Assembly: GCA_001797365.1 (NCBI GenBank)
Contig: MGPH01000030.1
Span: forward strand, 1,963 to 65,962
From: Deltaproteobacteria bacterium GWA2_45_12
GTDB lineage: Bacteria > UBA10199
DNA: 64,000 nt
Reading direction: 5' to 3'
Made by a program: the position numbers and the translations under genes. How positions within the stretch are numbered: the first letter of the stretch is position 1; each line of letters starts with the position of its first letter. The notes under the pieces were generated by a model, which was not told where the DNA came from, ran no database searches, and was given only the letters and a program-made list of their open reading frames with translations. Below are positions 19,996 to 20,744 of the stretch, in pieces.

Positions 19996-20136
19996 AAAAA
20001 GAGGGGTAGGGGCGATTTGTCTTTTAGTAGGCATGGGATGAATTGCCCCCACTTCTTACATTTGGATTCCCAGTATCATCCCCCTTTAAAAAAGGGGGAC
20101 TGAGGGGGATTTGGACTCCGTATCCGATTCAAACTA

Positions 20137-20262
20137 TTTTTATCCACCTACGTCCCCGCTCGTTGGCGGGGACTTCGGCGGACGAGCCGAAATGGTTAAA
20201 ACCCCGTGGCTTGCCACGGAATCTTGGGTCCAGGGCTTGCCCTGGGGTGCATACCATTGATT
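20137..20262 (+). repeat. A-element copy 3
   Basis: Its 3' 75 nt are near-identical to copy 1. The 5' part carries the perfect hairpins GTCCCCGC-TCGTTG-GCGGGGAC and TTCGGC-GGACGA-GCCGAA. Confidence 0.7.
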
Positions 20263-20331
20263 ATTTACTTCACTCTCTTTTACATGCGTTCTTATAAACC
20301 TATTCTCAAGATTTTCTCTCGAAAATTACGT

Positions 20332-20655
20332 ATGAAAATGACTGATACTGAGATTTTTCTTTGGTCTCATTTGAGGCGTAAGCAAATACTGGGTGTGAGT
20401 TTTTATCGCCAAAAACCCATATCAAACTTCATTGTCGATTTTTTTGCTCCGGTTGTTTCCTTGGCCATTGAAATTGATGGCTCACATCATTTTGAGGCCA
20501 ACCACTCCCATCAAGATCGTCAACGGGATACGATGTTGGAAAAGGAGGGAATAAAGGTTTTACGGTTTCACAATGGGCAAGTTTTAAATGAGATTGAGAC
20601 GGTTCTAGAAGTTATTTGGGAAGAGGTGGAAAAGAGGCTGTCGAGAAGGAAATAG
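20332..20655 (+). CDS. DUF559 (Vsr/restriction-endonuclease-like fold) domain protein
   Basis: MKMTDTEIFLWSHLRRKQILGVSFYRQKPISNFIVDFFAPVVSLAIEIDGSHHFE...DRQRDTMLEKEGIKVLRFHNGQVLNE matches the DUF559 pattern. The ORF-track start at 20206 lies inside the A-element and is likely spurious. Confidence 0.7.
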   Translation: MKMTDTEIFLWSHLRRKQILGVSFYRQKPISNFIVDFFAPVVSLAIEIDGSHHFEANHSHQDRQRDTMLEKEGIKVLRFHNGQVLNEIETVLEVIWEEVEKRLSRRK

Positions 20656-20744
20656 AACGGAAGCGGAAACAAATCCCCCTTGATCCCCCTTTTTTAAAGG
20701 GGGATGGGTACGGGGAATAGAATAAAATAAAGAGAAGGCCAAAT

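Follow-up and report, generated by a model that had tools for sequence, protein, structure and literature searches.

Several described systems bring short palindromic repeats together with an enzyme that cuts DNA. Repetitive extragenic palindromic (REP) sequences and their inverted doublets (REPINs) accompany genes for RAYTs (TnpA-REP), tyrosine transposases of the HUH Y1 class. IS200/IS605 insertion sequences (IS) combine subterminal hairpins with TnpA(Y1) or TnpB, and miniature inverted-repeat transposable elements (MITEs) such as Correia/NEMIS and Nezha are linked to a parent IS with a DDE transposase. Homing endonuclease genes reside in introns, inteins or conserved protein and RNA genes, and I-Bth0305I is a Vsr-like homing endonuclease (PMC3239194). 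Here we analyzed a 64-kb stretch of DNA (referred to as the window) from Deltaproteobacteria bacterium GWA2_45_12, a groundwater metagenome-assembled genome. At 20075-20706 the window contains two inverted modules of about 38 nt around a copy of an unrelated repeat, the A element, and an intact gene for a DUF559 protein of 123 aa. This segment is one complete copy of a widespread unit for which we found no prior description; in the literature we likewise found no report that links DUF559 to flanking repeats. We favor, with a probability of roughly 0.55, the reading that nuclease and repeat form a selfish partnership that resembles the one between RAYTs and REPINs and is built on an unrelated enzyme. 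DUF559 is a large nuclease family without known function, and its packaging between inverted structured repeats would provide a concrete, testable substrate.

A DUF559 gene between two inverted modules

Each end of the unit is formed by a module that consists of a hairpin (CCCCC-T3A6-GGGGG), a 5-nt spacer and the sequence GGGGGATTTG (Table 1). A 9-bp DNA hairpin is predicted for the left module, and the right end of the unit repeats the left one in inverted orientation (20066-20113 versus 20718-20670, 88% identity over 49 nt). The hairpin pattern was found at 7 sites in the 64-kb window (21 matches when overlapping matches and both strands are counted), compared to 0.18 matches expected by chance, and a search with the module profile recovered 7 full modules. 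All window modules share a genome-specific AAA loop (T3A6), while the consensus elsewhere is TTTGAAAAA. The first-pass annotation had placed inverted-repeat ends, a third copy of the A element and a DUF559 gene at 20.1-20.7 kb, and all of them were recovered there. The hairpins, which it had described as lying outside these ends, turned out to be part of them.

The unit is intergenic and lies between the convergent genes for a patatin and a ComEA protein. With about 630 bp it is longer than complete units elsewhere, which fall into a tight size range of 422-515 bp, for the sole reason that the A repeat is lodged between left module and open reading frame (ORF). In other units this position comprises only about 12 nt. 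The A element is therefore a passenger, an add-on specific to this genome, and the DUF559 gene, which had first been taken for cargo, is the conserved core of the unit across phyla. Terminator-like sites (a G+C-rich hairpin followed by a T-run) were absent from 19950-20800, where the hairpins continue into an A or into spacer and G-run. A promoter scan of the window copy gave one weak site within the start of the ORF, at chance level. Rfam 15 had no match at the gathering threshold in the whole window, permissive scans of the unit and of the gene-less element B2 gave chance-level matches only (E up to 5), and a tRNA/tmRNA search found none.

The encoded protein is a plain DUF559 domain (Pfam PF04480, E 2.4e-30, profile positions 4-108 of 109) of the Vsr-like PD-(D/E)XK nuclease type, as the first reading of the locus had supposed. 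It is identical to OGP09296.1, a 123-aa hypothetical protein of the same bacterium, and retains all of the residues D52, E63, D65, H69 and D78, which are invariant across 27 homologs. Matches of the family profile include the structure of a Neisseria DUF559 protein (PDB 3HRL, E 2e-29) and the catalytic domain of I-Bth0305I (PDB 3R3P, E 1.8e-4). An exhaustive protein search returned 20,648 representative DUF559 clusters at E up to 0.001, and the family includes E. coli YcjD. The window protein itself is not a YcjD orthologue (60.6 bits against the NCBIfam model PRK09767, the YcjD equivalog with a cut-off of 218), and we rejected an identity as HUH Y1 transposase (Y1_Tnp), since the gene of the unit encodes DUF559 only. 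Model libraries of defense systems gave weak domain-level matches (DpdF, a methyl-directed restriction enzyme), none of which claims the protein. There was no close paralog in the protein database, where the next best protein is 57% identical, and no second DUF559 gene in the window.

DUF559 genes and modules in other genomes

A metagenome scan with a DUF559 alignment yielded 80 loci whose proteins are 49-60% identical to that of the window. In nearly all of them the sequence CCCCC(C)TTTGAAAAAGGGGG(G)-N3-5-GGGGG(G)ATTT lies just upstream of the gene and an inverted copy just downstream. We counted modules with a profile built from the modules, using only loci with both flanks readable. Inward-facing modules were present on both sides of the DUF559 relative in 46 of 69 cases and on one side in 23, and no relative lacked them (0/69). 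Among control ORFs of at least 100 aa from the same contigs, none had modules on both sides (0/96), 21 had one on one side and 75 had none. DUF559 relatives devoid of such ends, for which the first-pass annotation had advised to look, were therefore not encountered in this set. The left module precedes the ORF start by a median of 12 nt, and the right module follows the aligned ORF end by a median of 5 nt. Often the ORF even extends into the right module and stops in the spacer or the hairpin loop; in Desulfuromonas carbonis the stop codon lies in the loop. None of the 80 loci contained a second DUF559 copy within ±2.5 kb.

These data bear on the MITE-like label that the unit had received at first. 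A classical MITE or composite element, in which an unlinked DDE transposase would act in trans on the ends as its terminal inverted repeats, with DUF559 and the A element as cargo captured once, would explain the ~38-nt inverted ends, the small ORF-less copies and the one true passenger, the A element. However, DUF559 recurs between the same ends in dozens of unrelated organisms, which is not compatible with a one-off capture. Target-site duplications, which had been suggested as a check, were not consistently present at 41 complete units or at the window copies, where a flanking T...A only extends the hairpin. Moreover, none of the loci examined has a transposase gene with these ends, and the only recurrent gene is DUF559. 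The label therefore fits poorly, and we regard this explanation as highly improbable.

In the converse direction, we scanned one genome per species with the pattern TAAAAAAGGGGG-N3-5-GGGGGATTT, which comprises 21 bases and for which we estimate about one chance match. The pattern occurs at no fewer than 120 places across many phyla; among the matches listed are Gammaproteobacteria, Thermodesulfobacteriota, Nitrospirota, Geobacter, Lysobacter, Luteimonas, Acinetobacter, Planctomycetes, Dehalococcoidia and Patescibacteria, besides others. Most of the listed sites are gene-less, with the module alone, as a nested palindrome or with an inverted partner 12-37 nt away. A DUF559 gene was present at 5 of the 120 listed loci, located exactly between inverted modules in two (L037, 380 nt interior; L097, 394 nt) and adjoining one module in three (L046, L091, L095). 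In 843 kb of other genomes we found 228 full modules, including 32 empty pairs, 29 nested palindromes and 107 solo modules. Around DUF559 units, extra full modules occur at 0.26 per kb, and these resemble the DUF559-flanking modules of their own locus more closely than those of other loci (0.89 versus 0.81, p 1e-14). Judged by this similarity, dispersed and gene-flanking modules are one family.

Modules thus far outnumber genes, which also suits a free-standing endonuclease of the homing type that parasitizes repeats spread by other means or maintained by the host, comparable to insertion sequences that target REP sequences. Such a nuclease would cut the center of an empty module pair and be copied in by repair, and would hence always be found between modules. 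Indeed, the 12-37 nt between G-run and C-run of empty pairs compare with about 12 + 5 nt of non-coding sequence in filled units, as if the ORF had been dropped into the middle of a pair. The profile match to a true homing endonuclease, gene-less elements in the window that are not deletion derivatives of the DUF559 unit (see below) and protein clades that do not track module variants point in the same direction. On the other side, distant DUF559 subfamilies each possess a module sequence of their own, which is easier to account for if the gene moves and evolves jointly with its repeat; ORFs that terminate within the right module indicate a long co-adaptation; and no other candidate enzyme that could mobilize the modules was seen beside them. 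We therefore consider the homing scenario unlikely compared to a partnership of nuclease and repeat.

The distant DUF559 genes (36-47% identical) have a lineage-specific hairpin with a neighboring run at one end of the ORF or at both. They were found in Deinococcus aetherius, D. psychrotolerans, Azospirillum, Sinorhizobium meliloti, Sphingomonas, Pseudanabaena, PCC 7002 and Synechocystis (chromids, plasmids), and in D. aetherius the gene is flanked by the 35-nt inverted repeat CCCCTCTCCC-AA-CCCTCTCCC-GCAA-GGGGAGAGGG. Plasmids, chromids and a few phages carry only such distant genes (<47% identity), and we found no obvious plasmid or phage vector for the unit itself. Among 2.9 million viral contigs there were two DUF559 relatives. 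One of them is located at the end of a putatively viral contig (L227, 1-190; IMG/VR contig 3300035670_001258), where three tandem left modules (CCCCCCTTTAGAAAAGGGGGGTTGGGGGGATTTGCCTACT repeated) precede the gene.

An independent sign of the same architecture comes from the proteins. We examined 36 of the best 150 representatives, with gene models that are extended N-terminally, and in 16 of these 36 the extension is a translated module (PPFxKGGxxGGI, e.g. PPFSKGRLGGI), 3-27 residues before the domain. More generally, gene prediction has added 30-90 surplus residues to the N-terminus of many DUF559 proteins in the database, and to the C-terminus of some (P0251-P0389). Since the extra residues (PPFxKGGxxGGI, SPLFQRGxxGDF, NPPQSPF) translate flanking modules, these are gene-calling artifacts. 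This is of practical use, as N-terminal extensions of the PPFxKGGxxGGI type can be recognized as errors of annotation.

Besides the GWA2_45_12 genome, carriers of the unit include Lysobacter sp. Root690, Luteimonas sp. R10 (NZ_CP141262), Acinetobacter kyonggiensis and Desulfuromonas carbonis. The unit in D. carbonis (L225) is situated inside a type I restriction-modification locus, with hsdS and a transposase gene on one side and a nucleotidyltransferase pair and hsdR on the other; further modules precede neighboring genes. DUF559 and "endonuclease domain-containing" proteins are enriched among genes with predicted programmed inversions (PMC9881135), in line with genes that are bracketed by inverted repeats, including those of this locus.

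Mirror symmetry of the module

The general module comprises about 35 nt, namely a 9-bp hairpin (C5-6 TTT / AAA G5-6, 3-nt loop), a spacer of 3-5 nt and, ahead of ATTT, a second run of G. Hardly any variation was seen in the hairpin arms and in this second run among 422 distinct modules. A change of the hairpin base pair C10:G22 to T:A goes along with an A in place of G34 in the second run (15 such cases in about 12 loci, versus 8 mixed states), which gives the variant CCCCTC-TTT...AAA-GAGGGG-NNN-GGGGAG-ATTT. Therefore, the second run mirrors the purine arm of the hairpin and is not a direct copy of it. The same rule applies to the modules of the distant genes in D. psychrotolerans (CCCCCTCC / CCTCCCCC and GGGGGGAGG / GGGAGGGGG) and Sphingomonas (GGGAGGGG / GGGGAGGG), and, with T opposite A, in S. 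meliloti and Azospirillum. It is also followed by a second repeat family of the window, at 14809-14898 (CCCTCCCTC / CTCCCTCCC) and in the palindrome 25001-25049. An antiparallel triplex of the purine motif requires mirror symmetry of a purine tract beside its own duplex (G*G-C, A*A-T, T*A-T). The mirror symmetry of the modules suggests a fold in which the second run would lie as a third strand along the hairpin.

Within one element the two modules may belong to different variants, and each keeps its internal mirror. Consequently, the module and not a long-range stem is the conserved object, and we dropped a pairing of the left G-run with the right C-run as a conserved feature. Ordinary folding of empty elements predicts stable hairpins and three-stem or long-hairpin folds (z-scores -4.8 to -8.2); the DNA fold of B2 has -46 kcal/mol and a z-score of -6.4. 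A recurrent variant with A opposite G in the stem (CCCCAC...GGGGGG) was seen in 12 distinct sequences, from Polaromonas, Sideroxydans, Cellvibrionaceae and others (L042, L045, L060, L078, L091, L128-L131). A conserved stem mismatch beside a gene with the fold of a T:G-mismatch nuclease is curious.

Gain, synteny breaks and other repeats of the window

Two family-level relatives, whose patatin is 68-69% identical, keep the convergent patatin/ComEA gene pair. The intergenic region between the two genes has 40 bp with an ordinary terminator hairpin in one of them (L219) and 322 bp in the other (L220), and neither DUF559 nor a module was found in 11 kb of either. Since the relatives lack the unit at a conserved gene pair, it appears to have been inserted in the lineage of the window. 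The comparison of filled and empty sites that the first-pass annotation had proposed thus provided relatives without the unit, which are too diverged to define the exact target.

The unit is present in all window-type contigs. Near-identical strains showed no polymorphism, with the exception that a 4.4-kb block (20658-25049), which extends from the right module of the unit to the related palindrome 25001-25049, has a different context on both sides in another assembly (L001, 7073-11464). There, 99.9% identity extends up to GGGGGATTTGTT, which is followed by a short B-like element and a methylmalonyl-CoA mutase gene. The block itself is 99.9% identical in L001 and encodes AspRS, a 94-aa ORF and the patatin. 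Its other neighbor in L001 is RF1-PrmC, and the junction to PrmC occurs in two independent assemblies (L004 supports it). The change of context could be a real rearrangement or an assembly join induced by the repeat. In Acinetobacter (L221-L224), an identical DUF559 protein of 122 aa occurs with one upstream context and three downstream contexts, and similarity ends right after the hairpin + GGGGAGGATT module, like at the insertion point of an island. The upstream gene is peptide deformylase in both contigs with a readable upstream flank (L221, L222), and the downstream regions contain a hypothetical gene, a DUF2971 gene and a RES-domain gene. The modules mark synteny breaks, and the breaks fall exactly at the modules.

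The position of the modules at gene ends and between genes could also be taken to mean that nothing is mobile here. DUF559 would then be a host nuclease for repair or housekeeping, its flanks would be promoter, insulating, terminator-like or mRNA-stabilizing signals, and the dispersed modules would be ordinary gene-end hairpins of the same kind. The loop consensus contains TTGAAA, a hexamer similar to a -35 box, about 17 nt before ATTT(AAA). The lack of target-site duplications agrees with such a role, as do the invariance of B2 among strains and the published view that Vsr-type genes are not transferred laterally (PMC3424549). However, the hairpins have no T-run, and the relatives use ordinary terminators at the same site, with neither modules nor gene. 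An inverted arrangement would direct the same "promoter" antisense into the gene. Near-identical modules accompany proteins of only ~55% identity in unrelated phyla, including the high-G+C Lysobacter. Moreover, modules are homogenized within a genome, synteny breaks fall at them, and the covariation of the mirror run has no place in a model of promoters and terminators. In our view a purely regulatory role of the flanks is quite unlikely.

Besides the DUF559 unit, the window contains two ORF-less elements between inverted modules, B1 and B2 (Table 1). As first described, they share the ends of the unit, with hairpin and GGGGGATTTG at each side, and they are 90% identical over 166 nt in mutually inverted orientation (53871-54036 versus 61260-61417). 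They measure 166-205 bp and contain no transposase. B1 has a squalene/phytoene synthase gene and an aconitase-C-domain gene as neighbors, and B2 a GMC oxidoreductase gene and an AhpC/TSA gene. The right hairpin of B1 is interrupted in its loop by a 30-nt insertion (54037-54066, CCCGCATACGGGATCCCGCTACGCGGTGAT), which is partly palindromic itself. The left-end region of the unit (20076-20129) also matches a half element by blastn (58054-58003). The original proposal of a nuclease-mobilized element with derived empty copies stands in so far as the unit is one entity, coexists with ORF-less copies and is best read as a repeat linked to a nuclease, which presumably mobilizes it. The derivation fell, since the B interiors are not deletion remnants of the unit. 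Of the two arms of each B element, only one is of the GGGCCCG type, and both inner arms in the DUF559 unit are similar to the same B arm.

Table 1. Window positions of the DUF559 unit, of related elements and of a separate palindrome family.
Feature	Position	Strand	Remarks
Left end module	20075-20113	+	hairpin CCCCCTTTAAAAAAGGGGG (arms and loop CCCCCTTT-AAA-AAAGGGGG) 20080-20098, spacer ACTGA, second G-run + ATTTG (GGGGGATTTG) 20104-20113; nhmmer module profile E 1.1e-11
Left inner arm GACTCCGTATCCGATTCAAA	20114-20133	+	homologous to B-element inner arm CTCCCGTACCCGATTCAAA
A-element copy	20130-20266	+	unrelated structured repeat between left module and ORF
DUF559 gene	20284-20655	+	123 aa, intact; Pfam PF04480
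Right inner arm AACGGAAGCGGAAA	20656-20668	+	related to B-element arm GGAACGGGAA; repeat search
Right end module	20669-20706	-	inverted copy of left module: CAAATCCCCC 20670-20679, spacer TTGAT, hairpin CCCCCTTTTTTAAAGGGGG 20685-20703; nhmmer E 1.4e-11
Solo hairpin, same type	24419-24446		hairpin 24424-24442; no second G-run
B1	53870-54075		ORF-less, between two inverted modules
Half element, single module	58015-58054	-	directly after stop codon; nhmmer E 7.9e-11
B2	61248-61418		ORF-less, between two inverted modules, inverted relative to B1
REP-like palindrome copies	2436-2473, 11521-11558, 26216-26253, 31985-32022, 41105-41142, 41546-41583, 53748-53785		separate family

The A element is a repeat of about 115-135 nt with several short hairpins and loops of the CUUG/UUCG type, and has no Rfam match. 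Further copies lie at 853-976 and 13378-13488, and the copy in the unit (20130-20262) is 82% identical to 853-972 and 79% to 13419-13486. One hairpin shows compensatory changes between copies (CCGUGG/CCACGG versus CUGCC/GGCGG). Each of the three copies shortly precedes a gene on the plus strand (a peptidase-like ORF, queC and DUF559), and the A element may serve as a mobile 5' leader or represent a repeat that forms a small structured RNA. The separate REP-like family is a perfect palindrome of 28 bp, GTA(A/G)GGGCAATTCATGAATTGCCCTTAC, with seven copies in the window; it starts with GTAG or GTAA, as do the GTAG-tagged REPs that accompany RAYT genes. The second family of hairpin and mirror-run modules (CCCTCTCCC / CTCCCTCCC type) resembles the DUF559-flanking modules of Deinococcus, Sinorhizobium and Sphingomonas. 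Its members are an "empty" pair whose interior measures 10 nt, a solo module and a nested palindrome (14809-14898, 35750-35789, 25001-25049).

Proposed mechanism and comparison with known systems

A selfish partnership of nuclease and repeat draws direct support from the anatomy of the unit, the association across phyla and subfamilies, the gain relative to relatives, the homogenization and mirror covariation of the modules and the intact catalytic signature. We envisage that the nuclease would recognize the module in its folded form, which may be a purine-motif triplex with the second G-run lying in the groove of the hairpin, and would nick or cut there. Repair or strand transfer could then copy modules into new intergenic sites, and the gene between two modules would occasionally be copied along. 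In the genome studied here, the unit has additionally acquired the unrelated A element. The action of DUF559 on the modules, this way of copying and the mobility of the unit are thus put forward as a model.

Several observations weigh against the partnership. Inward-facing module pairs also bracket ordinary genes, namely those for a cNMP-binding protein (L017) and uvrA (L011), the only other ORFs found in this position, so that bracketing alone is no evidence of unit membership; the modules in both cases look like separate elements in neighboring intergenic regions. A third of the units (23/69) have a recognizable module on one side only, and E. coli ycjD and the Neisseria gene show module remnants only. 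The similarity of DUF559 proteins does not follow the module variants within the subfamily (permutation p 0.8), hence co-evolution of enzyme and site gives no signal at this scale. Close strains showed no presence/absence polymorphism, B2 being identical in three assemblies from the same population. Finally, we infer the binding and cutting of modules by DUF559, as well as any movement, and the triplex is read from the symmetry of the sequences.

There is a substantial chance that the finding, likely a nuclease/transposase gene with its cognate palindromic repeats, represents a new class of element. In a bolder version, all DUF559 proteins (about 20,000 clusters at 50% identity, E. coli YcjD among them) would drive a new class of selfish DNA: the nuclease would recognize a triplex of hairpin and mirror run and, by cutting, spread the modules and occasionally itself through the genomes of bacteria from many phyla. 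This version we hold only tentatively, as more doubtful than probable. If it is true, cuts by DUF559 would also create the rearrangement break points seen at the modules. In either case, the modules are an intergenic repeat family common to very distant bacteria that marks synteny breaks and may fold as triplexes.

Among known elements, MITEs such as Correia/NEMIS and Nezha share with B1 and B2 the small size, the intergenic position, the inverted ends and the occurrence of several ORF-less copies. In contrast to MITEs, there are neither target-site duplications nor a parent IS with a DDE transposase here, and the linked gene encodes a nuclease of 120 aa. IS200/IS605 and the palindrome-associated elements derived from them resemble the unit in their subterminal hairpins, short ORF-less derivatives and lack of target-site duplications, and in both cases folded single-stranded DNA probably has a role. 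However, the unit has no TnpA(Y1) or TnpB, its ends are true inverted copies, and its enzyme belongs to another class.

With EDxHD homing endonucleases (I-Bth0305I) and free-standing ones, DUF559 shares a related catalytic fold, as seen from the profile match to 3R3P. Like homing endonuclease genes, it is small, selfish-looking and apparently present or absent at a conserved site, and the sequence that surrounds it on both sides is also found without it. Unlike them, it is not contained in an intron, an intein or a conserved protein or RNA gene, but lies between genes and inside a repeat, and its putative "target" is a multicopy palindromic repeat. Furthermore, the window protein does not have the long N-terminal DNA-binding region of I-Bth0305I.

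As in homopurine/homopyrimidine mirror repeats that form H-DNA, the purine arm and the adjacent G-run of the module are mirror images, 3-5 nt apart. The substitutions found in the modules (A or T opposite A-T) are those that the antiparallel purine triplex motif allows. In contrast to H-DNA repeats, the arms are only 7-10 nt in length, and the module joins its mirror repeat to an inverted repeat; therefore, a single-stranded hairpin with a third strand may be as likely as classical H-DNA.

The closest resemblance in our favored reading is to REPs, REPINs and their RAYTs. In both systems a gene for a DNA-cutting enzyme, one per locus among those examined here, is flanked by inverted hairpin repeats, and the repeat is dispersed between genes in many copies, with inverted doublets that form long hairpins, no target-site duplications and genome-specific sequences. 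The enzyme differs, being a Vsr-like PD-(D/E)XK nuclease (DUF559) and not an HUH tyrosine transposase. The module has no GTAG/CGTC tag and possesses the extra mirror-repeat run beside its hairpin. Whereas REPs differ between species, the sequence of the module hardly changes from phylum to phylum in the subfamily studied. The partnership of DUF559 with its modules would thus add a second, enzymatically unrelated example of a long-lived intragenomic replicator of the RAYT/REPIN type.

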